Origin: Bacillales bacterium UBA6380
GTDB taxonomy: Bacteria; Bacillota_I; Bacilli_A; RFN20; CAG-826
Direction: 5' to 3'
Length of the DNA: 64,000 nucleotides
Assembly (NCBI GenBank): GCA_002438785.1
Contig: DJQS01000011.1
Span: 94,888 to 158,887, forward strand
Below, piece after piece: positions 6,347 to 34,603 of the stretch (position 1 is the first letter of the stretch; every line of letters begins with the position of its first letter). Made by a program: the position numbers and the translations under genes. The notes beneath the pieces were generated by a model. That model saw only the letters and a list, made by a program, of their open reading frames with translations. It searched no databases and had not been told where the DNA came from.

Positions 6347-6370
6347 AAATTTTCCTTTTAATTTTTATTT

Positions 6371-7477
6371 TTATTTAATTAAATTGTTATCAACACAATA
6401 TTGATAGAATTCTCTTTCACCATCAAAATCGCTATCTTTAGCTTCAGTATATCCAGTATGTGAATAAACCTTATAAAGAATTTCAGATGGTGACATATCT
6501 TGACCTTCAATTTTATCAGTCATTTTAATTGCTTCTTTAAATGCTTTCTTAACTGCCTCTTTTTTAGCATCTTCTAAATTACTTCTTGCTGAAATTGTGT
6601 CATTATAAATTCCATCAGTAATAGCAATGACCTTAGTTTTAGTGAAAGCTTCTTCTTTATTAAAGTATGGATTGTCTTTTTTGATATAACCTTGTGCATA
6701 TCTAACATCGGTAAATCCCCAGAAGCCAGCAATAGTACCATCTTGTGTATTATTAAATGCAGCACCATAATCTGTTTGCTCGACACCAATAATCATAGTC
6801 TTTTTTTCTTCTTCAGTTGCTTTATCATATTTTGTTTGATCAACCATACTCATACCATAATCATTAAGATATTTTAAAGGTCTAAGATAACCAGCACCAC
6901 TAGTAGCACCCATTCTACCAATCTTTAAGCCAGCTAAGTCTTTAACATCAATCGTACCATCATTATTAGTATCTTTATAATATTCATTACGAACTGATAA
7001 TTGTGAAGTATACCAGTTTACATCTACATCGGATTGTTGACCTAAATACTTATAGCCATCAATTTCGCCATTCATTGCTTGCATTTGTTTTGTAACATCA
7101 TCTTTATAATCTTCAACTTGAACTTTATAACCTTTTCTAACTGATGTTAATAAAACTTCAATCTCACCTGGATCTTGTAAAGTAGCTTGAGCATAACCTG
7201 AAGCAGTTAAAAACCCAATATCTAATTGATTACTTAATAAACCTTCAGTTGTAGCATTATAAGAAGTACCGACACTAATTTCATAAGTGTATTCAGGGGT
7301 AATTTCATGTAAGACTGGTTCGAGTCTTTTTGCTAAAGCACCTAAAGTATCTGGATCATTTGATGGAACAAATTGAATTTTAATAACACTAGAATCATCT
7401 TTATTCCCACAACTAGTAGTTGTAGCAACCATCATTAATGCAGCTAAACTAGCACATAAACATAAACTTTTTCTCAT
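6371..7477 (-). CDS. phnD: PhnD-family substrate-binding lipoprotein
   Basis: Signal peptide with lipobox (VATTTSC|G). IKIQFVPSNDP and GFLTASGY are typical of the phosphate/phosphite/phosphonate binding-protein family. Confidence 0.75.
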   Translation of the reverse strand: MRKSLCLCASLAALMMVATTTSCGNKDDSSVIKIQFVPSNDPDTLGALAKRLEPVLHEITPEYTYEISVGTSYNATTEGLLSNQLDIGFLTASGYAQATLQDPGEIEVLLTSVRKGYKVQVEDYKDDVTKQMQAMNGEIDGYKYLGQQSDVDVNWYTSQLSVRNEYYKDTNNDGTIDVKDLAGLKIGRMGATSGAGYLRPLKYLNDYGMSMVDQTKYDKATEEEKKTMIIGVEQTDYGAAFNNTQDGTIAGFWGFTDVRYAQGYIKKDNPYFNKEEAFTKTKVIAITDGIYNDTISARSNLEDAKKEAVKKAFKEAIKMTDKIEGQDMSPSEILYKVYSHTGYTEAKDSDFDGEREFYQYCVDNNLIK

Positions 7478-7542
7478 TTTTTCTCTCCCTATGAATTTTT
7501 TAATTATATAAAGGATTCAAATAAACCTTTATAGAAAAGAAA

Positions 7543-7562
7543 AAAGGGGATACAACCCCTTT
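7543..7562 (-). terminator. intrinsic terminator downstream of the 859-aa gene
   Basis: AAAGGGG-ATACAA-CCCCTTT hairpin. On the minus strand it is followed by a TTTTTTCTTTTCT run. Confidence 0.7.
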
Positions 7563-7740
7563 AATAAACTATTAAACTTAATGAATAATTTTTAACATTT
7601 CTTTTCACGTCAATATTGTTTTATAAATGAAAAGCAAAGTAAACATTTTTTTAAATGAAAGCGGTTTCAAAAAATTGCAAATTGAAATTTATATATTACT
7701 TTATAATTTAAAAATATTGATACAATCTAATAAATTAACG

Positions 7741-10320: not shown

Positions 10321-10321
10321 T

Positions 10322-10984
10322 TTAATTTATCCTAAAAGTTATATTGATATTATGATTTTGATTATTATTTATTAATTTATATAAATTTAAATAAGAATCA
10401 TTTGTATTTGGTTTTACATCCATATTTTTATATTGAAATACTTCATTTAAATTTAATTCATAACGAAAACCACCTAATGGATATGTTTCATTGATATCGA
10501 TTTGTTTAATATATTTTTTAAAATCATATCCATCATTAGTGTTAGCATTATGATATTTTGAAGTAATACTAATAAAGTTATTTAACGAATCAGTCAAATT
10601 TCCATTATCTATTTCAATGAATAATGAAGTTGATAAATAATCTAAAGAATCGTTTTTATCAATAATTTCATATTCAATAATAATTTCTGGGTCATTAATA
10701 TAAATCTCATCATTTGTTTGAAAATCATCATTGTGTCTATAAAACTCAATACCATCAGTTAAATCATCTATTTTGCCAACTCCTTCACTAAAAACTATTA
10801 AGTTAGGACATTTAATTATCCTTAAATCACCAGTTTTAATCAACTCGCTAACTTTAATCGTCACATCACTTTCTTGGCTTTTAATTTCATTCGAATCAAA
10901 AAACCAGCTAGAAAAACCAAAACCTAATAACGTAAGTAAGGATGTTAATGGAACAAAAATATAAATAACTTTACGAAAAATCAT
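10322..10984 (-). CDS. secreted 220-aa protein with a SipW-type leader (locus 1, protein P2; paralogue of P1)
   Basis: N-terminus ...LLTLLGFGFSSWFFDSNE. Its ATG overlaps the peptidase stop (ATGA at 10981-10984). The C-terminal region aligns with P1 (NE-x-F-x-Y ... KP-x-T-x-D-x-Y). Confidence 0.8.
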   Translation of the reverse strand: MIFRKVIYIFVPLTSLLTLLGFGFSSWFFDSNEIKSQESDVTIKVSELIKTGDLRIIKCPNLIVFSEGVGKIDDLTDGIEFYRHNDDFQTNDEIYINDPEIIIEYEIIDKNDSLDYLSTSLFIEIDNGNLTDSLNNFISITSKYHNANTNDGYDFKKYIKQIDINETYPLGGFRYELNLNEVFQYKNMDVKPNTNDSYLNLYKLINNNQNHNINITFRIN

Positions 10985-11973
10985 TTTAAATCACCAATTA
11001 TTTTCTTATTATCGTAAGTATTAGCAACTTCCTTAAATCTAAGTTTATATTCTTTTTCAATTGAACTTTCAGAAATGTTAAACGCTATTAAGAAAATAAA
11101 GCAACTACTCAAAGCAACTATTCCTGCACTACTTTTTAAATAAGTTATCAAAACACCTAAACCAAAATTATTAAAACCAGTGTATCTACCAATTATATCT
11201 TCATAATGAACAGCAATTTCATATTTTGCACTACTAGTATTAGCATCACCTTGGAAAGTATAATAATTTTTATTTTCTGCACTATTATAATTTATTCTAA
11301 CTAAGCGATGAACGATAATTTCACCTTCATCATTTTTAAAAGCCACAACATCATATAAATTTAATTTTTTTTCATCTATTTTTTGAATAGAAATTAAACT
11401 GAATCTATTTATTTGATTATTTAAATTATTTTCTTTGATATAAGTGTTTTTCTCATTTGCTTCTTCCATTGAACCAGTTTTAATTACAATATAAGTTTTA
11501 TCCCCAATAAAAAATGCATCATTTTGTACTTTAAAACTTATAATAAAACTAAATAGTAAAGTGAAAATAAATAAAAATGTGAAAGAAAAAATGTAAGATA
11601 TTTTCTTTCTTTTTTTATCTTTCATATCTTCAATATTTAAAACTTTTGCTAATCTTCTTTTATCCTTATCTTCAATATCAGGATGATAATATAAATATGT
11701 TTCAACATTTCTTATTTTAGAAATACATTTAATTTCATTATTTGTTGAATTAACTTTATCAGTACTTATATCAAATTTTTCACCTTTAAAAAGATGTTTA
11801 TATTTAATTATCAATTCTTTTAATAATTTTTCATCTTCATGACCATATTTTATATGCTTCTTTTTATATGAAGCATATAAAATAAATAGAATTGTAAAAG
11901 TTATTGCTAAACCAATAATTGTCAATAAAGCAACATAAAAAACTATTTCAATTAATTGATTGTACCCTTCCAT
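10981..11973 (-). CDS. SipW/ER-type (S26B-like) signal peptidase I with an extra N-terminal TM and charged domain (SipW1)
   Basis: Boxes IKTGSME (catalytic Ser), IIVHRLV (His) and TFQGDAN. TM segments flank the catalytic domain on both sides. GAGG lies upstream of the ATG. Confidence 0.7.
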   Translation of the reverse strand: MEGYNQLIEIVFYVALLTIIGLAITFTILFILYASYKKKHIKYGHEDEKLLKELIIKYKHLFKGEKFDISTDKVNSTNNEIKCISKIRNVETYLYYHPDIEDKDKRRLAKVLNIEDMKDKKRKKISYIFSFTFLFIFTLLFSFIISFKVQNDAFFIGDKTYIVIKTGSMEEANEKNTYIKENNLNNQINRFSLISIQKIDEKKLNLYDVVAFKNDEGEIIVHRLVRINYNSAENKNYYTFQGDANTSSAKYEIAVHYEDIIGRYTGFNNFGLGVLITYLKSSAGIVALSSCFIFLIAFNISESSIEKEYKLRFKEVANTYDNKKIIGDLK

Positions 11974-11992
11974 TATTAACCTCTATAAAATA

Positions 11993-12679
11993 TTATTTAG
12001 CCTTGAATTCAAAAGAATATGCAAAATTTATTAAATTTCCACTTAATTTACTTATACCATTACTATAATCATCTTTAGTCTTTGGCTTACTTGTATATAT
12101 AAAACCTTCATTTACTAAAGTTTCTGAATTAGTATCAACATGGAATGTGAATGTTGAAGTAACATCATTAGTATAATCGTTAGTAATTTCTACTGTTTTT
12201 GTAAATGTTCTAACAAAATCACCAGTAGTATTATCTGTTTTAATATTACTACTAGTTACATTTGTATCATTAAATGAATCTTTAAAATTAATATATTTAG
12301 CTAAATCGCTTTTGATTGTAACTATCGCAGTAAATGTTCCAACTAATCCAGCATTATAAACATTTTCGATATTATCTTTAGTTAAAGTATAAGTAGCACC
12401 TATTGTTTTAACATAATCAGTTCCATTTTTAATACTAATACCAGCATCTAAATTCTCTTTGTTTCTATAACCACCTTGATCTAATATCAAATTATATTTA
12501 GTTGTATCATCAGCAGTAATTGTCCCTAGTTGACTAGCTAATGGCTCTACTATAACGCTAATATCTGAGTTAGCCCCAGCAACTGTATCATTACCAAAAT
12601 ACCAAGCACTAAAGCCACTACCAATAATTGCTAATCCACCAACAGTGGATAATAAAGAAATAAATAATTTTCTTTTCAT
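11993..12679 (-). CDS. secreted beta-rich 228-aa protein with a SipW-type leader (locus 1, protein P1; candidate major subunit)
   Basis: N-terminus MKRKLFISLLSTVGGLAIIGSGFSAWYFGND resembles the TasA leader (...GGGTWA|AFND). First gene of the operon, with a GGGGGA RBS. Confidence 0.8.
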   Translation of the reverse strand: MKRKLFISLLSTVGGLAIIGSGFSAWYFGNDTVAGANSDISVIVEPLASQLGTITADDTTKYNLILDQGGYRNKENLDAGISIKNGTDYVKTIGATYTLTKDNIENVYNAGLVGTFTAIVTIKSDLAKYINFKDSFNDTNVTSSNIKTDNTTGDFVRTFTKTVEITNDYTNDVTSTFTFHVDTNSETLVNEGFIYTSKPKTKDDYSNGISKLSGNLINFAYSFEFKAK

Positions 12680-13240: not shown

Positions 13241-13897
13241 ATGTCCATGAAAAATATATTATTAATAGAAGATGATGAACAAATATTAAAAGCAAATATG
13301 CTTTATTTAAAAGATAAATTTAATGTAACTTCTGCTACTTCAATTAAAGAAGCATTAAATGCTTTAAATGATAAAATTGATTTAATAGTTCTTGATTTAA
13401 TATTACCTGATGGAAATGGTGAAGAAATATTTAGAAAAATTTCTAATTCTATTCCAATTATAATTTTAAGTACGATTGATGATTATTCTTTTGTATGTAA
13501 ATATTTAGAAAATGGGGCCCTAGATTATTTAATTAAGCCTTGTAAGCCTTCAACTCTTTGCGCTCATATTGAAGCACGACTCAAAATAAATAATATTCTA
13601 ATCTATAAAGATATGAAAATTAATTTAAATTCACGTGAAGTAAGTATTAAAAATATTGATCTTCCATTAACAACAAGTGAATTTAATATTCTATTATTTT
13701 TAGCTCAACATGAAGGAGTTTGCTTTACACCAGACAAAATTTATCAAGAAGTTTGGCAACAAGAAACATTAAACCTAAGAACAAGTGTCTCAAGACATAT
13801 TTCTAGTTTAAGAAAAAAAATAAACGATATCTCTGATTTTAAATATATTTTTACTGAATTTGCAAAAGGATATTATTTTATATCAAATGACAACTAA
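13241..13897 (+). CDS. OmpR/PhoB-family response regulator
   Basis: Receiver domain (LLIEDDE, LIVLDLILPDGNG) plus a winged-helix output domain (LTTSEFNILLFL...). The start could be ATG 13247. Confidence 0.88.
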   Translation: MSMKNILLIEDDEQILKANMLYLKDKFNVTSATSIKEALNALNDKIDLIVLDLILPDGNGEEIFRKISNSIPIIILSTIDDYSFVCKYLENGALDYLIKPCKPSTLCAHIEARLKINNILIYKDMKINLNSREVSIKNIDLPLTTSEFNILLFLAQHEGVCFTPDKIYQEVWQQETLNLRTSVSRHISSLRKKINDISDFKYIFTEFAKGYYFISNDN

Positions 13898-15893
13898 TTA
13901 TAAGATTGATAAAATTGAGAAAATAACTTTTATCTCTTTTCTATTTGCTATTGTATTTTCAATATTATTCCCATATTTAATAATGTATAGAAATACATCT
14001 ACTTTTGCATCAAATAGTCATGAAATCGACAAAAATTCTTATGTAAGTTACTCTTTAAATGATTGTGCACCCAATAAATATAATTTAATAAGCAAGGTAA
14101 ATTATGTCGCTAATAGTTTTACTTCGGTTAATAAAAATGATATTGGAGAGATAAAGAACCTAAATGAAAATATCGCTAAATATGGCACAATATATGTCAT
14201 TTTAGATGAATTTAGTTTTGAAAATGAAATAGATTATCAAAATACATATAAAAGTTATGAGCATTATATAAATAAAGTTAATAATATTGAATTTGCTTTA
14301 TTTATTCCTTCTTTTTTTGATGTTTCATATATTTATTTCAATGATTCTTTAATTGAAAGTAATGGTTCTTTTGAAAAATACGATTCTGCTAAAAGAGATT
14401 TTACTAAATGCGAAGGTATTATTAGTTCAAAATCATTTAAGACCTCTATTGTCAAATTCTCAACTCAAATAAATTATGAAAATCAAGATAAAATCAATCA
14501 AAATATTATAACTATTCACTATCGACTTAATGATAAATTAATTATAGGTAATTTTTCTTTTTTATTTGGAAGATATAATTTAATTAGTCATTATAAAATA
14601 TTTATACAAATACAATTGATTGTTGGCTTAATAATAGCATGTATTTCTTTTGCAACATTAATTCCATTTGTGTTTATTATAAAACGTAATAAAAATAACT
14701 ATTTATTAATATCAATTATTACCTTGTTTTTTGTTTACGTATTGAGCTTATTTTTCTTAAAGTATGATTCTTCATTTGTTCCGAATTTATGGATTTACAT
14801 ATGTTTATCGTGCCTATCGATAATGCCTTTTACTTTAAGCTCTTTTCGTTTAAATAAATATAAATTAATTAATTTTTTATTTGTAATAGCTAATTCTATA
14901 TTAATCATTTTAAATTTTATATTTTTATCAATTAATATGGATATTTATAAGATAACAAATTTTATTTTTTTATTAATTTCAGTTTCGGAAATACTTATTA
15001 GTTTATATTTAACTATAAAATCACAAAAAACCATTGATTTTATAGCTATTTATATGAATATATTTATCGTTATTTCCTTTTTTAATTCTCATAACATATA
15101 TTCATTATTATCAATTAATTTTTTATATGTTATTTTATTTGCTACTTTAATATTCCTATTCGTATATTATAATTTAATAATCACTTTATATCGTAATAAA
15201 TTATCTTTAGCTAAAGAAATTAATCTTGATGAAACAATAGATAACTCTAATGATATGCAAAAAATATTAAGAGTTTTGTTTCATGATTTAAAAAATGAAT
15301 TAATTCTAGAAAGAAATTCTTTAGAATTATTAAAAGCAAATTCTACTATTAAAGAAAAATATTCTATAATTAACAATTTATTAGAGCATAATTCTCATCA
15401 ATTAAATTTAATTAAAGAAGGCAGTGAGTATGCTCATAAAACATTTAATCCTATTAAAATAGAAAGTATAAACATTGAAAATCTTATTAATAATATTTAT
15501 AAACAATTATTCGATGATGCTAAAGCTGTAGGTATTAATTTTTATCTAAAGAACATAAGGGAAGGTAATGTTATTAGTAGTCAATTTATTTTAGAAAGTT
15601 CTATAAAAAATATCATTTTCAATGCTATAGAACATAGTAAATGTAAAAATTTAAAAATTAAAACGTCAAAAACAACCTACTCCTATATCATAAAAATCAT
15701 TGACGATGGTGTCGGAATTGAGGATATTAAAAATATTTTTGCTCCTTATAAAAAGAAAGATAAAAATAATGAAGGTTTAGGTTTATATTTAATTAAGTCT
15801 CAATTAAATAATGCCAATGGTCGAATTGAATTAAAAAATACTAAAAGAGGAACAACTTTCAAAATTTTCTTATTAATTGATAATAGTTATTAA
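13887..15893 (+). CDS. sensor histidine kinase with a large extracytoplasmic domain and about 7 TM segments (7TMR-DISM-like architecture)
   Basis: H-box LFHDLKNEL. ATPase boxes DDGVGI and GLGLYL. One N-terminal TM, a ~200-aa external region, then about seven hydrophobic segments. ATG 13887 overlaps the regulator stop by 11 nt. The track start is TTG. Confidence 0.8.
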   Translation: MTTNYKIDKIEKITFISFLFAIVFSILFPYLIMYRNTSTFASNSHEIDKNSYVSYSLNDCAPNKYNLISKVNYVANSFTSVNKNDIGEIKNLNENIAKYGTIYVILDEFSFENEIDYQNTYKSYEHYINKVNNIEFALFIPSFFDVSYIYFNDSLIESNGSFEKYDSAKRDFTKCEGIISSKSFKTSIVKFSTQINYENQDKINQNIITIHYRLNDKLIIGNFSFLFGRYNLISHYKIFIQIQLIVGLIIACISFATLIPFVFIIKRNKNNYLLISIITLFFVYVLSLFFLKYDSSFVPNLWIYICLSCLSIMPFTLSSFRLNKYKLINFLFVIANSILIILNFIFLSINMDIYKITNFIFLLISVSEILISLYLTIKSQKTIDFIAIYMNIFIVISFFNSHNIYSLLSINFLYVILFATLIFLFVYYNLIITLYRNKLSLAKEINLDETIDNSNDMQKILRVLFHDLKNELILERNSLELLKANSTIKEKYSIINNLLEHNSHQLNLIKEGSEYAHKTFNPIKIESINIENLINNIYKQLFDDAKAVGINFYLKNIREGNVISSQFILESSIKNIIFNAIEHSKCKNLKIKTSKTTYSYIIKIIDDGVGIEDIKNIFAPYKKKDKNNEGLGLYLIKSQLNNANGRIELKNTKRGTTFKIFLLIDNSY

Positions 15894-15979: not shown

Positions 15980-17755
15980 TTATTTTAAATCAGGGTATTT
16001 TTCTCGATGTGCATTATAGTGAGTATGTAACAATTTATGTGCTAAAGGCGAACCATATTCTCCTAAATATGATTTATATAGTTTTATAATATCTTTATTT
16101 AAATGAGATCTCCTTATTTCTTTCTTCTTATCTAAATCATATAAAACTTTAGCCCTTTTACTTACATATGTATTTAAGATATCGTCATCTTCATTCTCTA
16201 AAAATACTGGATAAACATAAGGCTGTCCTCCACCATTGATGCAACCTCCTGGACACCCCATTACTTCAATAAAATCATATTTATTTTCATGATTTTTTAT
16301 CTTTTCAAGTAAAATTTTAGCATTTTTCATTCCACTACAAACTGCTATATGGTATTTTGATCCTAAAATAGTTATTTCAGCTTCTTTAATACCCTCAAAT
16401 CCTCTTACTGGCGTAAAATCAATTGGCTCCATTTCTTGATTAGTTAAAATATAATAAGCGGTTCTTATTGCAGCTTCCATTACGCCACCAGTTGCTCCAA
16501 AAATATCAGCTGCACCAGTAGTTTCTCCTATTAAATCATCGTCAAAATTTTCATTAGGAAGTTTATTCCATATAATACCACTTCTTCTAATTAAACTCGC
16601 TAATTCTCTCGTAGTTAAAACTATATCAACATCTTTAATTCCATCAACAGAATTTTCTGGTCTTTCTTTTTCATATTTTTTAGCTGTACAAGGCATAATA
16701 GAAACAACACAAATTTTACTACGATCAATATTTTTTCTTTCTGCATAATAAGACTTTATAATAGCTCCAACCATTTCATGTGGAGATTTGCAAGTTGATA
16801 AGTGACCCAATAATTCTGGGTAATAATATTCAATATAATTTACCCATCCTGGTGAACATGAAGTAATCATCGGCATAGGTTGATGAGTAATTACACGTTG
16901 TACAAATTCGTTTGCTTCTTCTGTAATTGTTAAATCAGCACCAAAATTTGTATCAAAAACCTTGCTAAACCCAAGTCTTTTTAAGGCAGCAACCATTTTT
17001 CCTTCTGAATTGGTACCTATTTTTTCACCAAATTCTTCACCTAAAGCAGCTCTTACTGCAGGGGCAGTTTGAACAACGACAAATTTCCCTTCTTTAAAAG
17101 CTTTATCTAATTTATCTATCTCACTATGTTCCATTAGTGCTCCAGTTGGACAAACTAATGTACATTGTCCACATTGAATACAAGGAACATTATTAAAAGA
17201 TCTATTTTCACTAGGTCCAACAAAAGTATTAAAACCTCTTTTTTCAAATCCCAAAATTCCAATTCCTTGAATTTCCTTACACGCTGATATGCATCTTCCA
17301 CACAAAATGCATTTCGATGTATCTCTAATTAATCCTGGAGCTAAATCATCATATGTAGTTTTAGTCTTTTCCCCTAAATATTTATCTGGTTCTGCACCTA
17401 CTCTTTTAGAAACTTCAAGGAGTTCACATTTCCCATTTTTTCTACATGTTTGACAAGATAATGAATGATTAGAAAGTAATAATTCAACACTTGTTCTTCT
17501 AGCAATTACAGCATCAGGATCACTAATAAAAATTTTTAAACCATCTCTAATAGGATAAGCACATGATGGAACAAGTCTTCTTTCACCTTCTACTTTAACT
17601 AAGCAAACACGACAACTAGCCACCGAACACATTCCATTTTTCCATGTACAAAGATTTGGAATATTATATCCACAAATTTTAGCAGCTTCTAATATAGTTA
17701 AATTATCATCTACTAAATAAGGTTTATTTTCAAAATATACAGTAATTTTTGCCAT
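15980..17755 (-). CDS. hydA: [FeFe] hydrogenase catalytic subunit, multi-cluster HydA type
   Basis: N-terminal 2Fe-2S and 4Fe-4S Cys clusters. H-cluster motifs MPCTAKKYE and EVMGCPGGCINGGGQP are present. The L1 motif reads TSCSPGW. Confidence 0.9.
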   Translation of the reverse strand: MAKITVYFENKPYLVDDNLTILEAAKICGYNIPNLCTWKNGMCSVASCRVCLVKVEGERRLVPSCAYPIRDGLKIFISDPDAVIARRTSVELLLSNHSLSCQTCRKNGKCELLEVSKRVGAEPDKYLGEKTKTTYDDLAPGLIRDTSKCILCGRCISACKEIQGIGILGFEKRGFNTFVGPSENRSFNNVPCIQCGQCTLVCPTGALMEHSEIDKLDKAFKEGKFVVVQTAPAVRAALGEEFGEKIGTNSEGKMVAALKRLGFSKVFDTNFGADLTITEEANEFVQRVITHQPMPMITSCSPGWVNYIEYYYPELLGHLSTCKSPHEMVGAIIKSYYAERKNIDRSKICVVSIMPCTAKKYEKERPENSVDGIKDVDIVLTTRELASLIRRSGIIWNKLPNENFDDDLIGETTGAADIFGATGGVMEAAIRTAYYILTNQEMEPIDFTPVRGFEGIKEAEITILGSKYHIAVCSGMKNAKILLEKIKNHENKYDFIEVMGCPGGCINGGGQPYVYPVFLENEDDDILNTYVSKRAKVLYDLDKKKEIRRSHLNKDIIKLYKSYLGEYGSPLAHKLLHTHYNAHREKYPDLK

Positions 17756-25458: not shown

Positions 25459-26184
25459 TTAAACAACGTATAAATAAATTGATACAAACTGTAAAATAGT
25501 TCCAATTAAGACAAAAATATGAAAAACAGTATGAAACCAAACTGATTTTTTACTACCTATTCCATATAATATTGATCCTAAAGTATAACTAATTCCACCC
25601 ATTAATAATAAAATAAACCCATTAAAACCTATAATATTTAATAATTCTTTAGCTTCAAATATAATCATCCATCCACTAGCTATATACATAATAAAACTTA
25701 ATATTTTAAATTTATTAATATTAATTGAATTAAAAACAATACCAAGAATTATTAAAATATAAACGATCGCTAAAATAATATAACCTGAATAAGGAATTAT
25801 ATTATAAAGTTTTACATTTCTTAAAGAAATTAAACAATAAGGAGTGTAAGTCCCAGAAATTAATAAATAAACTGTGTCGTGATCAATAATCCTTAATACT
25901 TTCTTTCCATTATTTCTTTTTAATGCATGGTAAATACAACTAATAGTATATGTAATCATTAGTGATATAGAATAAATTGCAATAGATAATATCTTAATAA
26001 TATACGAAGAATAACTTAATGGATTAGATGAATCTAATCCATTAATATAACCAGTATTAATTATTTTTATTAACGAAAAAATTAAAATAAAAATTCCAAA
26101 TAATGCACCTAATCCATGTGTGATACTATTCCATAATTCATGTCGCAATTTATAATTTGGTAATTTAACTTCTTCTAAACTCAT
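25459..26184 (-). CDS. hemolysin III/PAQR-family membrane protein
   Basis: Seven-TM ORF with WNSITHGLG, HD..., and HxxxH-like FHTVFHIF motifs. Confidence 0.75.
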   Translation of the reverse strand: MSLEEVKLPNYKLRHELWNSITHGLGALFGIFILIFSLIKIINTGYINGLDSSNPLSYSSYIIKILSIAIYSISLMITYTISCIYHALKRNNGKKVLRIIDHDTVYLLISGTYTPYCLISLRNVKLYNIIPYSGYIILAIVYILIILGIVFNSININKFKILSFIMYIASGWMIIFEAKELLNIIGFNGFILLLMGGISYTLGSILYGIGSKKSVWFHTVFHIFVLIGTILQFVSIYLYVV

Positions 26185-26250
26185 AATTAAAACCTCTATA
26201 TCTAGTATATAATACTAGTATATCTAGTTAATTAATTATTTCAATAGTTT

Positions 26251-26913
26251 TTATTTAGTTTCAATTAATTCGTTTCTTTTTTTATTAAAATTTCCTTCTT
26301 TGACTCCACCAATTTTAAAAACCTTATTAACAGTAATATAAATTAAAGGTGTAACAACCATTGCTGAAATAATTTCAAATAAAGCCCCTAGACTTATAAA
26401 GGTAGCAACAAAACTAACAAAAGTATAATTCTTAATCATCTCTCCAAGTCCTAAAGCTCTAGAGATATAAAAAGGATCTAAGATACCAAATAAATACCAA
26501 AATAAGACAACAATTATTGTATGAAATAATGTCAATATACCCGAACAAGGTAAAATTAATGAAGCATATAATTTTTGTGAACAACACTTTTTTAATATAT
26601 CAAAAGTAAGTCCACTAACTAAACCAAATATCATTCTTGGCAGAATTGAAATAAATGGATTTAAGAAAAAATAATTCCCAGTTCCTGGATATTGTATAGC
26701 TTTTAGTAATGAAAAAACACCCATAATTGTCCCATATAATAATCCTTTTTTATAGCCAAATAAACTAGCACCAATAAGGACTAAAATATGAATTGTTGTA
26801 AAACTAACAAACCCAATATTTATATAGCCTAAATAATCAACAAACGTAAATAAAATAATTAGTGCAATAAACATTGCGTCATAACTTATACTCTTTATAA
26901 CTTTATTTTTCAT
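26251..26913 (-). CDS. ECF-transporter S (substrate-capture) component, possibly for pantothenate
   Basis: ~220-aa six-TM protein. Its start overlaps the coaX stop by 11 nt. Confidence 0.55.
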   Translation of the reverse strand: MKNKVIKSISYDAMFIALIILFTFVDYLGYINIGFVSFTTIHILVLIGASLFGYKKGLLYGTIMGVFSLLKAIQYPGTGNYFFLNPFISILPRMIFGLVSGLTFDILKKCCSQKLYASLILPCSGILTLFHTIIVVLFWYLFGILDPFYISRALGLGEMIKNYTFVSFVATFISLGALFEIISAMVVTPLIYITVNKVFKIGGVKEGNFNKKRNELIETK

Positions 26914-27658
26914 ACGAATTTACCTTATAAATTTCTAATAACCCTTCTAAAACCACATTTTTTTCATAAATAAAGTTATCTAAATGCTTAATAACTGAAT
27001 TAGCATATCCACCAGTAATAATTCTTTTTACTTTATAGCCAAGTTCTAACTCTATTTTATTAGCAAATTCATTAATCATAAAAGCATGCCCTAAAACAAT
27101 ACCTGATTCAATTGAATCTTTAGTATTTTTACCAATAACATTTTTTGGAGCAATTAAAGGAACTTCAATTAATAATGAAGTTGAATTAACTAAAGCATTT
27201 AATGAAATGCCAAGTCCGCTAGTAATAATTCCACCAATAAAATTACCATATTTATCTATTACGTAAATTTTGCTTGCTGTACCTAAATCACATACTAAAC
27301 AAGCTTCTTTAAATTTAGTATAAGCGCCAATTGCGCCAGAAAGCATATCAGCACCTAATTCACTAGGATTGTCAATTTTAATCGCCATCCTAGTTCTAAG
27401 TGATTTTGAAACTATAAGCGAATTTAAAGAAAAAACTTTACTTATTGCTTCTTTTAAAATCAATGTTAATGATGGAACAACTGAACTTATTAATGATCCA
27501 TTTATATTTTTTTCTTTAATAAGTGAAGAAATAATAATTGCATATTCATCACTACTTTTGTTACGATCTGTTTTAACTAAATAAGTATCTACTAACTTAT
27601 TTTTATCAAATAGACCAAGTTTAATCATGGAATTACCACAATCGACAACTAATATCAT
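26903..27658 (-). CDS. coaX: type III pantothenate kinase
   Basis: MILVVDCGNSMIKLG N-terminus and DLGTA and TGG motifs, typical of CoaX. Confidence 0.88.
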   Translation of the reverse strand: MILVVDCGNSMIKLGLFDKNKLVDTYLVKTDRNKSSDEYAIIISSLIKEKNINGSLISSVVPSLTLILKEAISKVFSLNSLIVSKSLRTRMAIKIDNPSELGADMLSGAIGAYTKFKEACLVCDLGTASKIYVIDKYGNFIGGIITSGLGISLNALVNSTSLLIEVPLIAPKNVIGKNTKDSIESGIVLGHAFMINEFANKIELELGYKVKRIITGGYANSVIKHLDNFIYEKNVVLEGLLEIYKVNSYEK

Positions 27659-27741
27659 ATTTTCCTCCTACAAGCTTTAAATATTTTTAAAGTCTCGTGC
27701 TTATTTAATATATACTTTTTAATTAATTTTTACAAATAAAA

Positions 27742-27762
27742 GGAGTAACAAGTTGTTACTCC
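27742..27762 (-). terminator. intrinsic terminator after the second signal-peptidase gene
   Basis: GGAGTAACA-AGT-TGTTACTCC. On the minus strand it is followed by TTTTATTTGT. Confidence 0.75.
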
Positions 27763-27783
27763 TAAATATTTAAGTTTATATAA

Positions 27784-28743
27784 TTATTTAAGTTCTATTA
27801 CTTTAACTTTAGGTAATTTATTAATCTCTTCTTGATTAATTCGATCTTTAACGCTATTAAATTGACTTTCATATAATTTAACTTTTTTATTATCAAATAT
27901 ATCTAAAATAATTAAAGAGAGTAAGGTATATGTAATGCTAACTAAGCCAACATAACTTCCACTAAAAGAAAAGATAATTCCTAATGGATAATTATTATAA
28001 CCAGTATAATGATACAAAATGTCACTACTTTTAACTAAATAATAATCACTTGAACTATTAGCATCACCTCTAAAAGTATAATAAATTTCATTATTTACTT
28101 CTAGCTTAGCAATTACTCTATGAACTATTAGATTATTTTTATTATTTTTATAAGCATATATATCAAATAATTTAATATCATCATTATTATTAACTTTTTC
28201 TAATGAAATTAATGAATACGTTTTTATTTGATCATTTAAATTCATATCTTTAAGATATGAATTTTCTTCATTTTTATAACTCATTGATCCACTATTTATA
28301 GTTACATAAGTTTTATTATTTATTTCATATAAATTATTAGATAACTTTGAATAAACTGTAAAAGAGAATATAAAAATAAAAATTATAGAAAATATAATAT
28401 CAAAAATAATTTTTAATATTATATTTCTTTTTTTATTTTTAACCTTTAAATCATATCTTTTAATATATAAAGGCTTATAATCATTATTTAATGGTGGATT
28501 AGATGCATCAATTGTTAAATTAATTGATTTCTTAGAATTAATTAGCCTATATTCAATAGGTCGATTATCTTTATATTCCTTAATAGACATATTCATATCA
28601 TTTTTATATGTCTTATCTAATTTATTATTCTTTATTTTTTCTTTAAATAAAGAATAATTATCTAAAATAATTAAAAGAATAATTATAAAAATAATTGTTA
28701 ATAATAAAACATTAAGTAATATAGATTGAGTTTGTTTAGTCAT
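27784..28743 (-). CDS. SipW/ER-type signal peptidase I paralogue with the same extended architecture (SipW2)
   Basis: INSGSMS, LIVHRVI and TFRGDAN boxes. TM1, charged region, TM2, catalytic domain and C-terminal TM are colinear with SipW1. Confidence 0.7.
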   Translation of the reverse strand: MTKQTQSILLNVLLLTIIFIIILLIILDNYSLFKEKIKNNKLDKTYKNDMNMSIKEYKDNRPIEYRLINSKKSINLTIDASNPPLNNDYKPLYIKRYDLKVKNKKRNIILKIIFDIIFSIIFIFIFSFTVYSKLSNNLYEINNKTYVTINSGSMSYKNEENSYLKDMNLNDQIKTYSLISLEKVNNNDDIKLFDIYAYKNNKNNLIVHRVIAKLEVNNEIYYTFRGDANSSSDYYLVKSSDILYHYTGYNNYPLGIIFSFSGSYVGLVSITYTLLSLIILDIFDNKKVKLYESQFNSVKDRINQEEINKLPKVKVIELK

Positions 28744-28783
28744 ATTTAAAATTATATTAAAATAATTAAAGGATTAATAGATT

Positions 28784-28927
28784 TTATTTATTATTATTAA
28801 ATCCTATTTCATACTCTAAGTTATTACTATAACTATTATTTGAATTAGTTTTAGTAATAACCCAAGCAGAAATACCTACTCCAATTAATCCTGATAATAA
28901 TATTAAAGTTAATAAGAGTTTTTTCAT
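28784..28927 (-). CDS. unannotated 47-aa ORF with a SipW-type leader plus a single short beta-strand (P5)
   Basis: My own translation is MKKLLLTLILLSGLIGVGISAWVITKTNSNNSYSNNLEYEIGFNNNK*. The leader closely matches that of P3. It starts 7 nt after the 839-aa gene stop. No clear SD. Confidence 0.55.
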   Translation of the reverse strand: MKKLLLTLILLSGLIGVGISAWVITKTNSNNSYSNNLEYEIGFNNNK

Positions 28928-28933
28928 AAGGTG

Positions 28934-31453
28934 TCATTTATATAATTTAATACCAATTATAACAGCTCTTTTTTTATTTGTCGAAATTTCAATAGTTTTA
29001 GTAGGATTGAATGTATAAGCTAAAGTCTTCGACAATGTTTTTCCATCAGTATTTTTATCCATAGACAATGTCACACCATTTACAGTAACATCACAAGTAT
29101 CATTTTTCCATGCATAACCAATTAATTCAATTTTAGAAACTTCTTCTTTAGTTTCAAAAGATAAATTTCCAGCTTTTTTGCTTGTTCCAAGCCTAATACC
29201 ACCTTTAGTATTTGAAGTAAAACCATTTTCAGCATTTATTAAAGAAGTAATCATGCCACTATCGTTAGTAGAAGATTGTAATGCAACATCTAGAAAATTT
29301 TCTTTGCTTATAGATTGCGAATAAATATCTCCACTTATTGTTTCGCTTTCAGCTTCAAATTTATATTCACCAAGCAAAGTATAAGAAGTACCCTCTTCAA
29401 CTTTTAAAAGAAGTTTATTACTAATAACATCATTATATTTAGCAGTTATCTCAGTTTCCCCAACACTTAAAGCATGAATTATTCCATCATTAGAAATGGT
29501 AGCAACACTAGGATTAGATGAACTCCATTCCAAAGTAACATTTATTTGACTTGGATTTGTAGTAACGGTGACTTTTCTATCAGCATCACCTAATTTCATT
29601 GTCATTTCATTTTCAAGCGTAATTGAAGTAGGGACAACATCAACACTTTCATAACTTATAATTACACCATAATAATTATTATATTTACCTTTACTAATTG
29701 TACCAAATACTTGTATTTTTATCTTATAACCAACTTTCATTGCAGGAGTAGGATCATCACCTTTTTTAAAATCATAGCTATATTTGTACTCAGTATAACT
29801 TAATGATTTATTATCATTATTTTCAATACGTGATCCATAAATTACTAATTTATTATTATTTGAATCAACTAAAGTAAATCTACCATATTCAGCTTTTTCA
29901 ATTGAATAAACAGTACCTTCAACTTCATAAAGGTGGGTAGAATCATAAGTAGTATCGGATAAAACTTTTTCAATAGTAGATTGAATAGGTTTACTTAAAT
30001 CAATAACTTCATAGCCAATTACATAAGCTCCTTCTTGTTCTACTTTAAATGAATAATCCTCTAAATAAACTTTATCACCACCATTTAAAGTGTAATAAAC
30101 TTTACTTAATTCATAACCTTCATTTGCTTTAACAGTAAAACTTATAGATGAACCTAATTGATATTTACTATCTTCTTTAGCATCGGTTATAGTAACTTCT
30201 GCACCAGTTAATGTATCATCAATATTGATAGTAACAGTCTTAACTGGTTCTTCTTTCTTACTAACTTCTAATTTAAAAACATTTTCACCTTCTAATAATG
30301 TAAAGTATTCTTCAGTTAGTTTAGTTTCGTTTAAATAAGCTACATAACTAAATCCATCATCAACTGTAACTTTATAAGTAACCTTACTACCGACATTATA
30401 TTCTTCATTTAATTTAAGCTCAGTACCTTTATCATCAAGAAATTTAACTGTAGCGTGTTCAACATCGTTATATAAAATGCTACCTTTTTTAACTTCATCA
30501 ACTAATTCATATTTAAATTTATAATTTACACCTTCTAAGAAATTGTAACTTCCTTCGTAAGTATAACCTTTATTTGTAGCTCTAGTTGTAGAAGCTACTT
30601 TCTTCATACTAACTTTATCTTCATTTATATAAATTACATCATCTTTAAGTAATTTTCCTTCATCTAAAGTTAAAGTTAAACTATGTTCTCCAGTAACTAA
30701 TTTATTATCTTTTAATCCTTCAATAGTTAAACTAGATCCACTAATTTCAGGTAAAGTAATTTCACCTGTTAATTTTTCAACAGGTTTAACTTCACTACTT
30801 CCACCAAGTTGAATAGTATATCTAAAAGCAACACCATCAAAAGCTTTAACTAAACTTTCAAAATTTTTAACTTGCTCTTCTTTAGCTAAATCTTTCCAAA
30901 CAATTTGTGGATTATTTCCTAATTTTTCACTCCAAGAGAAAGTAAATGTATAAGGATATCCATCATTTTCATATTGAGCATCAAGCCAAGTTTTATAATT
31001 AATTGTGCTATCAATAGGCAAAGCAATATAACTTAATAAATTCTCTAACCTAGTTCCTTCTAAAGCTTTCTTTGTTTCTTTATCAATAGCCTCAGTTTTA
31101 ATAACTAAATTAGGTCGATATTGTTCACTAACTAAATCCCAGTACTTATCTTTTAAAGCTTGATAAGGAGAAACATTTAATCCGCCATCTTTTTTAACAC
31201 CTTTAATTAAATAAGATTTAGATAAATTTTCTTCACCATAATATTCTTTAGGTGCATCAAATTTAATTTTTTCATTAGTATCTTTTTCTTTAACTTCCAA
31301 ATCAAAGTCGCTATTTCCAACTGTAGTGATTTCAAAAGGAATTTCACCATCTTTTGAAGTAAAGCCTCCATTAACTGTCCAAGTAGCATAAGCAGTTCCG
31401 ATTAAACTTCCGACACTAAGAACACCTATAAGTAATTTACCAACCTTTTTCAT
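28934..31453 (-). CDS. large secreted multi-domain surface protein with a SipW-type leader and a Big_2 domain (P4)
   Basis: N-terminus MKKVGKLLIGVLSVGSLIGTAYATWTV. GGGAGG RBS. Contains repeated Ig-like segments, an OB-like segment (aa ~508-602) and a Big_2-like segment (SSSNPSVATISNDGIIHALSVGETEITA). Confidence 0.85.
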   Translation of the reverse strand: MKKVGKLLIGVLSVGSLIGTAYATWTVNGGFTSKDGEIPFEITTVGNSDFDLEVKEKDTNEKIKFDAPKEYYGEENLSKSYLIKGVKKDGGLNVSPYQALKDKYWDLVSEQYRPNLVIKTEAIDKETKKALEGTRLENLLSYIALPIDSTINYKTWLDAQYENDGYPYTFTFSWSEKLGNNPQIVWKDLAKEEQVKNFESLVKAFDGVAFRYTIQLGGSSEVKPVEKLTGEITLPEISGSSLTIEGLKDNKLVTGEHSLTLTLDEGKLLKDDVIYINEDKVSMKKVASTTRATNKGYTYEGSYNFLEGVNYKFKYELVDEVKKGSILYNDVEHATVKFLDDKGTELKLNEEYNVGSKVTYKVTVDDGFSYVAYLNETKLTEEYFTLLEGENVFKLEVSKKEEPVKTVTINIDDTLTGAEVTITDAKEDSKYQLGSSISFTVKANEGYELSKVYYTLNGGDKVYLEDYSFKVEQEGAYVIGYEVIDLSKPIQSTIEKVLSDTTYDSTHLYEVEGTVYSIEKAEYGRFTLVDSNNNKLVIYGSRIENNDNKSLSYTEYKYSYDFKKGDDPTPAMKVGYKIKIQVFGTISKGKYNNYYGVIISYESVDVVPTSITLENEMTMKLGDADRKVTVTTNPSQINVTLEWSSSNPSVATISNDGIIHALSVGETEITAKYNDVISNKLLLKVEEGTSYTLLGEYKFEAESETISGDIYSQSISKENFLDVALQSSTNDSGMITSLINAENGFTSNTKGGIRLGTSKKAGNLSFETKEEVSKIELIGYAWKNDTCDVTVNGVTLSMDKNTDGKTLSKTLAYTFNPTKTIEISTNKKRAVIIGIKLYK

Positions 31454-31569
31454 TAAGAATCCTCCCTTTTAGCAAATGTTTAATAAATTAAATCGTTAAA
31501 AAAGTAATATAAAAAACTCAGATAAAAATTCTCTTTCTAAACATATTTTATAAAACTTTTCATGAATTT

Positions 31570-31580
31570 ATAATATCACA
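31570..31580 (-). promoter_or_regulatory. candidate extended -10 promoter element for locus 2
   Basis: Minus strand reads TGTGATATTAT (TRTGn + TATTAT), ~115 nt upstream of the P4 start. The -35 is weak. Confidence 0.35.
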
Positions 31581-31616
31581 TCTGTATTTTGAAATGAAAA
31601 TATATTTATTAAAAAG

Positions 31617-31633
31617 TTGTAAATAAATTGTAA
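31617..31633. promoter_or_regulatory. TTGTAA-N5-TTGTAA direct repeat (11-bp period), related to the locus 1 repeats
   Basis: TTGTAA at 31617 and 31628. TTGTAA is the reverse complement of TTACAA, which occurs in the locus 1 distal site. Confidence 0.25.
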
Positions 31634-31728
31634 TATGTTTTCGTTAATCATTAACACATTAAGATATCAACTAATAGTTAAATTCAAAAAAATATTTAAC
31701 TTCTAAAGACTTTTTATAAAAAATTAGA

Positions 31729-32424
31729 TTATTTTATTTTACTTAACTTAATTAATTTATCTATTAAATTAGTAATTATATAAAATATTGGTATAATTAA
31801 AAATATAACCCAACTAGGACTCCAACCATTAAAAGTATTTGTATATGTTCCATATAATCCTATAATTAAATAAATACTAATAACTAAAAATACGATATTA
31901 AAACGTCTTATATCTTTATAAATATAGCAATCATAAATACTACTTGGTAAAAACCCAATAAAAAAGATAGGCCAAAATACAAAAAATCCAAGATTATTCT
32001 TATTTAGTATTAATCCTAATACTAAATAAATAATAAATATTATAAGCAAAGAAATAGATAAAACTAAAGAACTAATCAAACGTTGTTTTTTCTTTTTATT
32101 ATAAAATTTATAAAAACTCTCTTTACCAAAATGTACTTTTTTATCTCTAGGAGCTTTAAATTTAACCTCTTCTTCAATTATAACATCATCATTGCGTTTA
32201 CTTAAAATATCATCTATTTTTTTATTAGTATCAATTAAATCACTTATAGAAACATGGTAAATATTAGCTAATTCATGAAGTTGATCATAAGTTAAATCAA
32301 CCTCTCCTTCTTCAATTTTAATAATAAGATCAGAACTAATATTTAATAAATTAGCTAATTCATTAATACTATAACCAAACTCTTCTCTAAATTCTTTTAA
32401 TCGATTTCCAAGTAATTTATCCAT
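31729..32424 (-). CDS. XRE-family HTH protein fused to a 4-TM membrane domain
   Basis: N-terminal HTH (LKEFREEFGYSINELANLLNISSDLIIKIEEG) followed by several hydrophobic segments. Confidence 0.75.
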   Translation of the reverse strand: MDKLLGNRLKEFREEFGYSINELANLLNISSDLIIKIEEGEVDLTYDQLHELANIYHVSISDLIDTNKKIDDILSKRNDDVIIEEEVKFKAPRDKKVHFGKESFYKFYNKKKKQRLISSLVLSISLLIIFIIYLVLGLILNKNNLGFFVFWPIFFIGFLPSSIYDCYIYKDIRRFNIVFLVISIYLIIGLYGTYTNTFNGWSPSWVIFLIIPIFYIITNLIDKLIKLSKIK

Positions 32425-32453
32425 ATATCTATATTATTATATTTAAAATAATT

Positions 32454-33536
32454 TTATTGAATAGGTTTTCTAAAAAATTTTCCATAAACTTGTTCCATTG
32501 GAACAACATTAATAAAAACACTAGGATCAATTTCTTTTGTAATTCTAATTACCTTTTTTACTTCACTTTTCCTTACAGCAATATCGATAATAAATAAATC
32601 TTTACCACTATAACCACCTTTCCCTTGAATAATAGTACATCCATGAGGAATCGCAGCAATAATTGCTTGAGATAAATTATAATTAGGAGTGATGATTTTC
32701 ATTTCATATTTTTTATTAGTCGTATTAATTGTATCAACTACTAGCGAAACAACTATCATATATAAAATAGTGAATAAGAAAATAATAATTGCTGTAGGAA
32801 CTTCTACTCTACCTAAACCACCACTATCTGGAAATAACTTCTCATTTAATGGTAAAACAGATAAAATCGAGTAGACAGTCACAACAATTAAATTTAAAAA
32901 AGCACTCCATTTTCCAATTTGAACAGATTTTCTTTCACTAATATAAAAAGCAATAATATCTGTTCCTCCAGCTGTAGTATCAATAATATAAGCTAAAGCA
33001 GCAGCAATACCTGTACACATTCCAGCAAATAAAACTCTAGCTACAGTTTCTGTTGCCATTTTCGCACTTATTAAATTAATAATATTATTCGGATCATCAC
33101 TTTTAATCAAAATACCAAAGATAGAAGCAAAAATAACATTTAATAAAGAATAAATAGCAAATTTTTTACCGACTTTAAAAAATCCCAAGAAAAATAAAGG
33201 AATATTAACTAATAAATAAAAACACCAATATACAATATTATAATTAATATCACTACTCATAAATTCAAAACCGCATAATTTTAAAATAGTTGCTAAAGAT
33301 TGAGAAATTCCACTAGCTCCACAACTTGCTAAATGTTTAATGGTTGCTTCATTAGCAATACTAGGATCAATCGCTTGAAAATTTGGTTGTATAAAGCAAT
33401 TAAATCCAAAGGCAAAAACAATTCCACTTAACGCAGTTATAAAAACCATATAACTATTCTTAATTATTGAATTCAAAATAGGGTGATCAAATAAATAATT
33501 TTTAATGTTTTTCTTAAATTTTATAAATTTATACAT
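32454..33536 (-). CDS. YitT-family membrane protein (DUF161/DUF2179)
   Basis: Polytopic N-terminal part plus a soluble C-terminal domain, with YitT-like size and layout. Confidence 0.65.
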   Translation of the reverse strand: MYKFIKFKKNIKNYLFDHPILNSIIKNSYMVFITALSGIVFAFGFNCFIQPNFQAIDPSIANEATIKHLASCGASGISQSLATILKLCGFEFMSSDINYNIVYWCFYLLVNIPLFFLGFFKVGKKFAIYSLLNVIFASIFGILIKSDDPNNIINLISAKMATETVARVLFAGMCTGIAAALAYIIDTTAGGTDIIAFYISERKSVQIGKWSAFLNLIVVTVYSILSVLPLNEKLFPDSGGLGRVEVPTAIIIFLFTILYMIVVSLVVDTINTTNKKYEMKIITPNYNLSQAIIAAIPHGCTIIQGKGGYSGKDLFIIDIAVRKSEVKKVIRITKEIDPSVFINVVPMEQVYGKFFRKPIQ

Positions 33537-33730
33537 AACAAAAATATTATTTTACAAAATAGTTTTAATAACAAGAAAAAAATAATAATCATCTATAAAT
33601 CTTCATCTTTTCATATAGCATTTAATTTTAAAACTTTATATATATTTATATATATAATTAAAAAAATAAAGTTGTTAATTTATTTAACTAGTGTTATTAT
33701 TTTTATTGCATATTATTTGAGGTAATTTAC

Positions 33731-34603
33731 ATGAAATTTTTAAAAATATTAGCTACACCATTTATTAAATTATGGGGTTGGATTAGAGATACCGCTTGGG
33801 TTCAACCACTTCTTATTGTCGGTTGTATTTTTGCAGTTATATTTTCAATTCCATATATTTCTAAAGGAATTCAAAATCTTTCTAAAAGTGAAGAAGATAC
33901 AATGAAATTCTATAACAATAATCGCTTATCAATGTCAGGTGCTTATAAAGATAATTCTGATGCTGGAAAATTTTTATATGCTTATTCTAATGCCCAAAAC
34001 GCTTGGGAAGATTATAACAATAGTAAAAATTTAGAAGATAGCAAGAAAACTTTATCTGAATTTAGTGATAGATATGGTGATAAATTCTTCTTTATCTTAG
34101 CTAAATCAAGTTGTGATGCCTGTGAAAACATTTCTACTGGTCTAGAATATTTGAAAAATAATCAAAGTAAATATGACGTTAAAGGTGTTAAATTACATAC
34201 CATCGTTGTTGATCAAGATTTAAGTAAAAATGATGAGGATGATAATTATAAAACCGATAGTGCTTTTAAAATGATTTATGACAATTATTCTGGAGCATTT
34301 GATAATTTCTATGATGCTGGTAGAAATGGTAGTTATTATACAAGTAATGTCAGTGATTATAGTTCATATGTCGATAATTTAGAAACATTGCATGGAAAAG
34401 TTGAAGATATTAAAGTTCCTTTAGTTGTAATGGTTGATTTATCTAAAGATGATTATGGTGAATATGTGATGAAAGGATATGATTATATTGCTACTCAAGT
34501 ATTCTTTGAAATTACTGGCGATACTAAATATGATCGTGCTTCTAGTTTTGCTGATTGTTGGAAATATTATGGCAAAACATTCGGTAAATCAGTTACTGAA
34601 TAA
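33731..34603 (+). CDS. membrane-anchored protein with a possible thioredoxin-like CxxC domain
   Basis: N-terminal TM. FFFILAKSSCDACENI resembles a thioredoxin-fold CxxC context. Otherwise uncharacterised. Confidence 0.45.
   Translation: MKFLKILATPFIKLWGWIRDTAWVQPLLIVGCIFAVIFSIPYISKGIQNLSKSEEDTMKFYNNNRLSMSGAYKDNSDAGKFLYAYSNAQNAWEDYNNSKNLEDSKKTLSEFSDRYGDKFFFILAKSSCDACENISTGLEYLKNNQSKYDVKGVKLHTIVVDQDLSKNDEDDNYKTDSAFKMIYDNYSGAFDNFYDAGRNGSYYTSNVSDYSSYVDNLETLHGKVEDIKVPLVVMVDLSKDDYGEYVMKGYDYIATQVFFEITGDTKYDRASSFADCWKYYGKTFGKSVTE

Follow-up and report, generated by a model that had tools for sequence, protein, structure and literature searches.

Module 2, a three-gene locus at positions 27784–31453 on the minus strand of a 64-kb stretch of DNA from Bacillales bacterium UBA6380 (contig DJQS01000011.1; the whole stretch is called the window), probably pairs a dedicated Sec11/SipW-type Ser/His signal peptidase with its own two substrates, a large surface protein of 839 amino acids (aa) and a mini-protein of 47 aa. 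We call the peptidase "dedicated" on the strength of gene linkage. A paralogous module 1, also in the window, holds a second peptidase and three further cargo proteins. The features of both modules are listed here; all lie on the minus strand (ORF, open reading frame; TM, transmembrane; Ig, immunoglobulin; L-numbers denote loci of other genomes).

31454–31728, minus: intergenic region of 275 nucleotides (nt) 5' of the 839-aa gene, presumed to bear the promoter
28934–31453, minus: cargo gene for an 839-aa exported multi-domain surface protein, the main module-2 cargo (ORF call; N-terminus MKKVGKLLIGVLSVGSLIGTAYATWTV)
31382–31453, minus: signal peptide of the 839-aa protein, codons 1–24, leader motif …GTAYA/TW… (read from the sequence; predicted cleavage site)
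30806–31381, minus: N-terminal domain of the 839-aa protein, codons 25–216, which defines the module-2 cargo family and is kept in 12 relatives
29429–29629, minus: Big_2 Ig-like domain, codons 609–675 (Pfam PF02368)
28784–28927, minus: mini-gene, 47 aa (ORF call; N-terminus MKKLLLTLILLSGLIGVGISAWVI; called as a gene in the Joint Genome Institute (JGI) record)
27784–28743, minus: S26B (Sec11/SipW-type) signal peptidase gene, 319 aa, with an N-terminal TM extension
27741–27763, minus: intrinsic terminator closing the module-2 operon (10-bp stem, four GC pairs, T-run)
7741–12679, minus: module 1, encoding a 228-aa protein, the peptidase, a 220-aa protein and an 859-aa protein (layout kept in L013–L017 and L023)
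10981–11973, minus: paralogous module-1 peptidase gene, 330 aa (in the tree it groups with P0020, P0019 and P0031, apart from the module-2 clade)

Operon structure of module 2

The first-pass annotation, which had been made from the sequence alone, described a large protein with a Big_2 domain and a 47-aa ORF preceding the peptidase gene on the same strand, with a terminator at 27742–27762. Both ORFs are present as described, Pfam places the Big_2 domain (aa 609–675) well above its gathering cut-off (E 1.1e-10, 41.7 bits vs. 22.8), and the hairpin was located at 27741–27763, the sole terminator-like site within 27500–31900, where 0.2 would be expected by chance. The stop of the 839-aa gene is separated from the start of the mini-ORF by 6 nt, and the mini-ORF from the peptidase gene by 40 nt. 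A strong Shine-Dalgarno sequence (GGGAGG, 31461–31466, 7 nt 5' of the 839-aa gene) is found at the first gene only. From these spacings, the single terminator and the single strong Shine-Dalgarno sequence it follows that module 2 is one operon of surface protein, mini-protein, peptidase and terminator. The window has about 25% GC and was read with genetic code 11; ORFs of 839 and 319 codons in DNA of this composition are not due to chance. No Rfam family was matched in 26000–34000, so there is no sign of a regulatory RNA in or near the operon. A near-consensus promoter-like site lies at 28956–28984 on the minus strand, inside the 3' end of the 839-aa gene and just 5' of the mini-ORF (TCGACA, 17 nt, TG-TATAAT; 11 of 12 positions), and could drive the mini-ORF and the peptidase gene separately.

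A divergent subfamily of S26B peptidases

As had been proposed, the 319-aa peptidase is colinear with the 330-aa peptidase of module 1 and shares its domain order and sequence boxes (38% identity over 212 residues, E 2e-41). Both proteins run from an N-terminal TM helix through a Lys-rich, presumably cytoplasmic linker and another TM helix to the catalytic domain, a C-terminal TM helix and a tail. The boxes read NSGSMS, IVHRVI and RGDANS in the 319-aa protein and KTGSME, IVHRLV and QGDANT in its paralogue. Across an alignment of 34 family sequences S153, M154, H208, R209, G226, D227 and N229 are invariant, and D233 is present in at least 90%. When the profile of this 34-member family was compared with the PDB, it matched human SEC11C (E 3e-11) and SEC11A (E 7e-10; entries 7P2Q, 7P2P), with the Ser box (VLSGSME), IVHRV and GDNN..D of these proteins in register.

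Family models place the two enzymes near SipW and the archaeal type I signal peptidases (SPase I) and outside the limits of either. The NCBIfam model for SipW (NF046067) gave E 1.6e-14 for the 319-aa and 6.3e-11 for the 330-aa peptidase, at 53.9 and 42.2 bits against a cut-off of 190; the archaeal SPase model TIGR02228 gave E 6.3e-10 and 2.8e-08, at 39.1 and 33.8 bits against a cut-off of 51.85. No Pfam family, S24/S26 included, matched either protein. Both carry the hallmarks of MEROPS subfamily S26B: the catalytic Ser follows an N-terminal membrane anchor and stands in a box of S-G-S-M type, the general base is His rather than Lys, and Asp residues are conserved. Judged by sequence, both are S26B (Sec11/SipW-type) peptidases with intact catalytic residues, and they form a divergent subfamily marked by the extra N-terminal membrane helix, the Lys-rich linker and an insertion after the Ser box. 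A word-indexed search of 5.8 billion proteins returned 39 relatives, among which the sole organism name was "Mollicutes bacterium". The label "SipW-type" in the first-pass annotation thus holds for the logic of the system; as a statement of family membership it fails, with peptidases far below the cut-offs, leaders that miss the SipW-cognate model TIGR04088 and cargo that is not TasA-like.

A leader class linked to the peptidases

The five cargo proteins of modules 1 and 2 begin with MK(K/R) and a hydrophobic core followed by G-x-G-x-[AS]-x-W; in both module-2 leaders the start is MKK. Within the first 45 residues this motif occurs in exactly five ORFs of the window, and all five adjoin the two peptidase genes. 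The linkage extends to other genomes: taking 21 sources together (the window and 20 loci), 40 of the 42 leader-bearing ORFs lie no more than 4 kb from a peptidase gene on the same strand, with about equal amounts of sequence inside and outside that range (192 kb vs. 188 kb). Both exceptions are in L022, a few kb off.

The conserved motif runs past the cleavage region into the mature protein, where the leaders of the two modules end in consistently different ways: W-Y-F in module 1 (whose three cargo leaders read G-F-S-[AS]-W-[YF]-F) and W-x-[VI] in module 2. This split suggests substrate specialization of the paralogues, since each module would serve its own cargo set through a slightly different leader. 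Small residues occupy positions −3 and −1, as A-Y-A in the large protein and I-S-A in the mini-protein. Only in hhalign comparisons do the leaders align with the TasA signal peptide, including its Trp, at 43% identity over 23 residues; the TasA sequence used was checked against PDB entry 8AUR, which verified the mature N-terminus.

Cargo proteins without a matching fold

The 839-aa protein has an intact copy that is 98% identical (P0040), and its relatives are at 51–54%. An AlphaFold2 model of its N-terminal domain (aa 25–216), built on 16 sequences, reached a mean predicted local distance difference test score (pLDDT) of 76 and a predicted template-modeling score (pTM) of 0.75; Foldseek found no match to it at E ≤0.001 in the PDB or BFVD. 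For the 228-aa protein of module 1 the values were pLDDT 87 and pTM 0.74, again with no Foldseek match at E ≤0.001 in the PDB. Both models have a low-confidence segment just past the leader (aa 30–35 in the 839-aa protein, aa 25–42 in the 228-aa protein), and on reading of the models their order of secondary-structure elements is similar. At the sequence level, a relationship between module-1 and module-2 cargo is detectable over the leader and roughly the first 50 mature residues and no further.

With the exception of Big_2, no cargo protein of the window matched a Pfam or NCBIfam model. When cargo profiles were compared with PDB sequences, A5 gave no match and A6 a best E of 0.58. Word-indexed searches for cargo homologues gave few matches, and an exhaustive search was made for the 228-aa protein, whose family comprises about 155 clusters among 1.84 billion representatives. 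None of the 59 members scanned belongs to a credible Pfam family; two lone matches at E ~0.002 are at chance level. The 228-aa and 220-aa proteins of module 1 are homologous to each other (hhalign, 98%).

The C-terminal half of the 839-aa protein showed Ig-like similarity only among PDB sequences. Its last ~155 residues (aa ~685–839; 28934–29400, minus strand; …GGIRLGTSKKAGNLSFE…RAVIIGIKLYK) are kept in relatives whose middle regions differ, and matched no family and no PDB sequence.

A conserved mini-protein that copies the cargo N-terminus

In each of the 12 module-2-type loci from other genomes, a mini-ORF of 47–70 codons separates the large gene from the peptidase gene, and this constant position validates the 47-codon ORF as a gene. 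The encoded proteins share MKK, the leader, a segment of ~12 residues and an (E/T)-P-x-[VI]-G-[DF] motif, often followed by an acidic tail. The ratio of nonsynonymous to synonymous substitution rates was below 1 in each of seven pairs tested (roughly 0.25–0.85), so the mini-ORF is under mild purifying selection. Compared by hhalign with the N-terminus of the large protein, the mini-protein family aligned with 97% probability (E 6.7e-11, 37 columns), a homology that spans the first ~40 residues; by this alignment, the mini-protein is a stand-alone copy of the large protein's leader and first ~15 mature residues. None of the mini-ORFs has its own Shine-Dalgarno sequence, and every one starts at or just past the stop of the large gene, which makes it likely that their translation is coupled to that gene.

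Relatives and evolutionary history

In a neighbor-joining tree the paralogues of the window belong to different orthologous groups, and each group has an operon layout of its own: large protein, mini-ORF and peptidase in the 319-aa group; a ~250-aa protein, the peptidase, a ~210-aa protein and a ~900-aa protein in the 330-aa group. The duplication therefore predates these species, and each paralogue has retained its own cargo. The first-pass annotation had spoken of a duplicated system in which each peptidase is kept next to its cargo. The separate conserved operons bear this out; the modules are, on the other hand, not simple duplicates, given how little of their cargo is detectably related. 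Its placement of both loci between core genes is correct for the window and for L002, whereas the context differs in more distant relatives.

Linkage of the orthologues to cargo, on which that annotation had staked its inference, was found in every complete relative locus (20 loci from other genomes), where a long-form peptidase lies in an operon with genes of the same leader class; L008 holds a truncated peptidase gene only. Nor has module 2 decayed, the large gene, mini-ORF and peptidase gene being intact in 12 of 12 module-2-type loci as well as in near-identical strains (metagenome-assembled genome (MAG) GCA_002298615.1 and JGI metagenome 3300029947). The relatives come from gut MAGs, which bear the names Mollicutes, uncultured Bacilli or Candidatus Onthovivens. 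The last of these we take to belong to GTDB order RFN20, family CAG-826, and the window organism presumably to the same group. The genome collection was scanned with an 11-sequence peptidase alignment and for the pattern FRGDANxxSD only, so that relatives lacking the pattern were missed.

Several of the loci depart from the layouts of the window. A tandem pair of complete module-1-type operons occupies positions 6195–15110 of L023; both operons encode a long S26B peptidase of their own (369 and 373 aa), and both include three cargo genes with leaders. A third peptidase clade (L021, L022) has leaders in which Trp is replaced by Tyr or Phe, along with further conserved genes; one of these, encoding a polytopic membrane protein of ~600 aa after the module (L021, 11030–12835; L022, 7915–9753), is possibly an extra component that the window lacks. 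In L018, from a Bacilli MAG with a 1.48-Mb contig, positions 5224–9591 encode two S26B peptidases, one of the long form (315 aa) and one of the short form (208 aa), which lie among three small proteins (80–158 aa) that bear leaders. The module-1-type loci L013–L017 were binned under Oscillospiraceae, Alistipes, Lachnospiraceae and Faecalibacterium; at 36–42% GC, they probably represent contigs of a single higher-GC relative that were mis-binned, and not true occurrences in the named taxa.

Proposed mechanism and alternatives

The cargo would be exported by the Sec pathway and then cut by the peptidase at or beside the invariant Trp, with predicted sites A-Y-A|T-W in the large protein and I-S-A|W in the mini-protein; a literal alignment with TasA would place the cut one or two residues later. 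Cleavage would release an adhesin-like multi-domain protein made up of the unmatched N-terminal domain, Ig-like repeats, Big_2 and the C-terminal domain. The newly exposed, flexible N-terminal segment may serve assembly or retention on a cell that is probably wall-less. That segment may also be the means by which the mini-protein works, be it as partner, cap, nucleator or tether. The module-1 paralogue would do the same for its different cargo set.

A more specific version can be framed from work on fibers, in which the TapA N-terminus is donated to TasA by strand complementation (PMC10151520) and TasA and AbpA subunits assemble by donor-strand exchange (PMC9674648, PMC9245690). On this version, the two modules would form a hitherto unrecognized surface-assembly system of wall-less gut Bacilli, made of subunits that match no solved fold, in which the S26B cut exposes a donor strand; the mini-protein, with 20–45 residues when mature, would serve the 839-aa adhesin as an "orphan donor strand", capping, nucleating or tethering it. 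We know of no described stand-alone counterpart to such a strand. The low-confidence N-terminal segment in both monomer models and the mimicry by the mini-protein are indirect hints in its favor, and we regard this version as speculative and rather doubtful.

A number of observations weigh against a dedicated peptidase with its own substrates. None of the five window leaders matched TIGR04088, the model for SipW-cognate leaders, at E ≤10. The positive control TasA matched it at E 6.1e-11, so that membership of the leaders in this class was rejected. No fold of TasA, camelysin (PF12389, Peptidase_M73) or pilin type was detected in the cargo, and few sequences stand behind the N-domain model. 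Once cleaved as predicted, the 839-aa protein would be left with no evident anchor in membrane or wall. Leader cleavage and its position are themselves predicted from sequence, and strand complementation by the mini-protein is drawn by analogy with TapA and TasA for cargo that shows no TasA fold. Finally, the enzymes could double as housekeeping peptidases, and the search for LepB covered 64 kb of the genome.

This last point opens onto the main rival, which is not fully exclusive of the dedicated operon: the two S26B proteins would be the general signal peptidases of a lineage that has lost LepB, standing beside the few non-lipoprotein exported proteins that are left. A tblastn search with a SipS query found no LepB/SipS-like sequence in the window, a result of little weight for the genome as a whole. 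The one other exported protein noted there is a lipoprotein, and reduced Mollicutes-type genomes are known to carry few peptidases. What argues against it is that there are two paralogues, each fixed in its own conserved operon, that whole modules are tandemly duplicated in L023, and that the leader motif reaches into the mature protein and is confined to neighbors of the peptidases. A general enzyme would need no co-inherited substrates. We therefore judge this account unlikely.

Further down the scale, the leaders might remain as uncleaved membrane anchors and the peptidase homologue act as an assembly chaperone, like SipA/LepA for streptococcal pili. Where there is neither wall nor sortase, an 839-aa adhesin could most simply be kept on the cell by leaving its signal anchor uncleaved. 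The invariance of the catalytic Ser, His and Asp across 34 diverse members would be unexpected in a non-enzymatic chaperone, however, and the small residues at −3 and −1 are those of cleavable signals, which leaves this reading very improbable. Least probable of all is that the cargo consists of highly diverged TasA/camelysin subunits forming biofilm fibers by donor-strand exchange in a true homologue of TapA-SipW-TasA: the gene logic is the same, the signal peptides are similar and the models show a flexible N-terminal segment followed by a beta-rich domain, but the hhalign alignment with TasA ends with the signal peptide, TIGR04088 is unmatched, neither the window proteins nor the 59 family members match Peptidase_M73/TasA in Pfam, and Foldseek, whose PDB target set includes the TasA entries 5OF1 and 8AUR, listed TasA for neither model, so that TasA/TapA homology of the cargo was rejected.

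The dedicated peptidase with its own two substrates is thus the account we favor for module 2.

Neighboring genes

Directly upstream of module 2, at 31729–32424 on the minus strand, lies a gene for an XRE-type helix-turn-helix (HTH) protein with a membrane-spanning C-terminal half. It shows weak SlrR similarity among many HTH models and is present in same-species contigs; as a member of module 2 it was rejected, being missing from that position in L002. A phage or mobile origin of module 2 was likewise rejected: matches to PHROGs fall on the Ig domain only, BFVD gave no match, and the GC content equals that of the flanks.

Beside module 1 and divergent from it (13241–15893, plus strand), Pfam identifies genes for a 218-aa response regulator of the OmpR type and a 677-aa histidine kinase. 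The module-1-type loci L015 and L018 are likewise flanked by ORFs that resemble response regulators, which could mean that expression of these modules is regulated. The large subunit of an [FeFe]-hydrogenase, with ferredoxin-like domains, is encoded at 15980–17755 on the minus strand (Pfam, E 4e-97), in keeping with an anaerobic gut organism that lives by fermentation.

Comparison with known systems

The SipA/LepA proteins of streptococcal pilus islands resemble module 2 in that a gene of the signal-peptidase family sits in a surface-structure operon. SipA resembles S26A enzymes, is not known to have the catalytic residues and acts together with sortases; in the family described here the catalytic residues are invariant and the locus contains no sortase. 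With SEC11A/SEC11C and the archaeal Sec11-type SPase I (S26B), the window peptidases have in common the Ser/His chemistry and the core signature SGSM, HR, GD.N…D. Sec11-type enzymes are general, single-copy and unlinked to substrates, whereas those of the window are duplicated, linked in operons to cargo and below the TIGR02228 cut-off.

The archaeal bundling pili AbpA/AbpB, of the archaeal TasA superfamily, likewise consist of exported beta-rich subunits whose processed N-terminus is used in donor-strand assembly, and are encoded beside a larger multi-domain TapA-like protein (PMC9245690). Their locus has no dedicated peptidase (PMC9245690), and Foldseek found no structural similarity between them and the modeled cargo.

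The closest parallels are tapA-sipW-tasA of Bacillus subtilis, sipW-tasA-calY of B. cereus and sipW-bsaA of Clostridium perfringens, in each of which an S26B gene shares an operon with exported substrates, as here. In tapA-sipW-tasA, as in the modules, the substrates share a special class of signal peptide, and the module leader MKKKL…GLALVGGGTW can be aligned with that of TasA, MKRKL…GLAIIGSGFSAW. A substrate that acts through its N-terminal segment is found there in TapA and may be found here in the mini-protein (PMC10151520, PMC9674648). Here the peptidase is ~130 residues longer than SipW, having gained a linker and one more TM helix at its N-terminus as well as an insertion after SGSM, and reaches 54 bits against the SipW family cut-off of 190; the leaders fail TIGR04088, and no fold of TasA, camelysin or TapA is seen in the cargo. 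Where the TasA system pairs a fiber subunit with an accessory protein, module 2 pairs a giant Ig-domain protein with a 47-aa peptide, and the host, unlike those of the TasA systems, belongs to a genome-reduced, probably wall-less gut lineage. No paper linking SipW-type peptidases to Mollicutes-like lineages was found in the literature searched.

The gene logic itself is thus known, from tapA-sipW-tasA and from the TIGR04088 class of SipW-linked substrates. New are the architecture of the peptidase subfamily, a leader class missed by the curated model, cargo families that match no solved fold, among them a giant Ig-domain protein, a conserved mini-protein mimicking the cargo N-terminus, and the presence of two modules, elsewhere in tandem, in a reduced and probably wall-less gut lineage. 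Several families have neither a Pfam model nor a solved-structure match: the 228-aa type, the N-terminal domain of the 839-aa protein and the mini-protein. Such surface proteins can be sought in metagenomes with the leader motif and the peptidase subfamily as a genomic marker. If our account is true, a private peptidase with its own leader class is one route by which uncultured gut bacteria display large adhesins, and the principle of "SipW plus cognate signal peptide" extends past TasA-type cargo.

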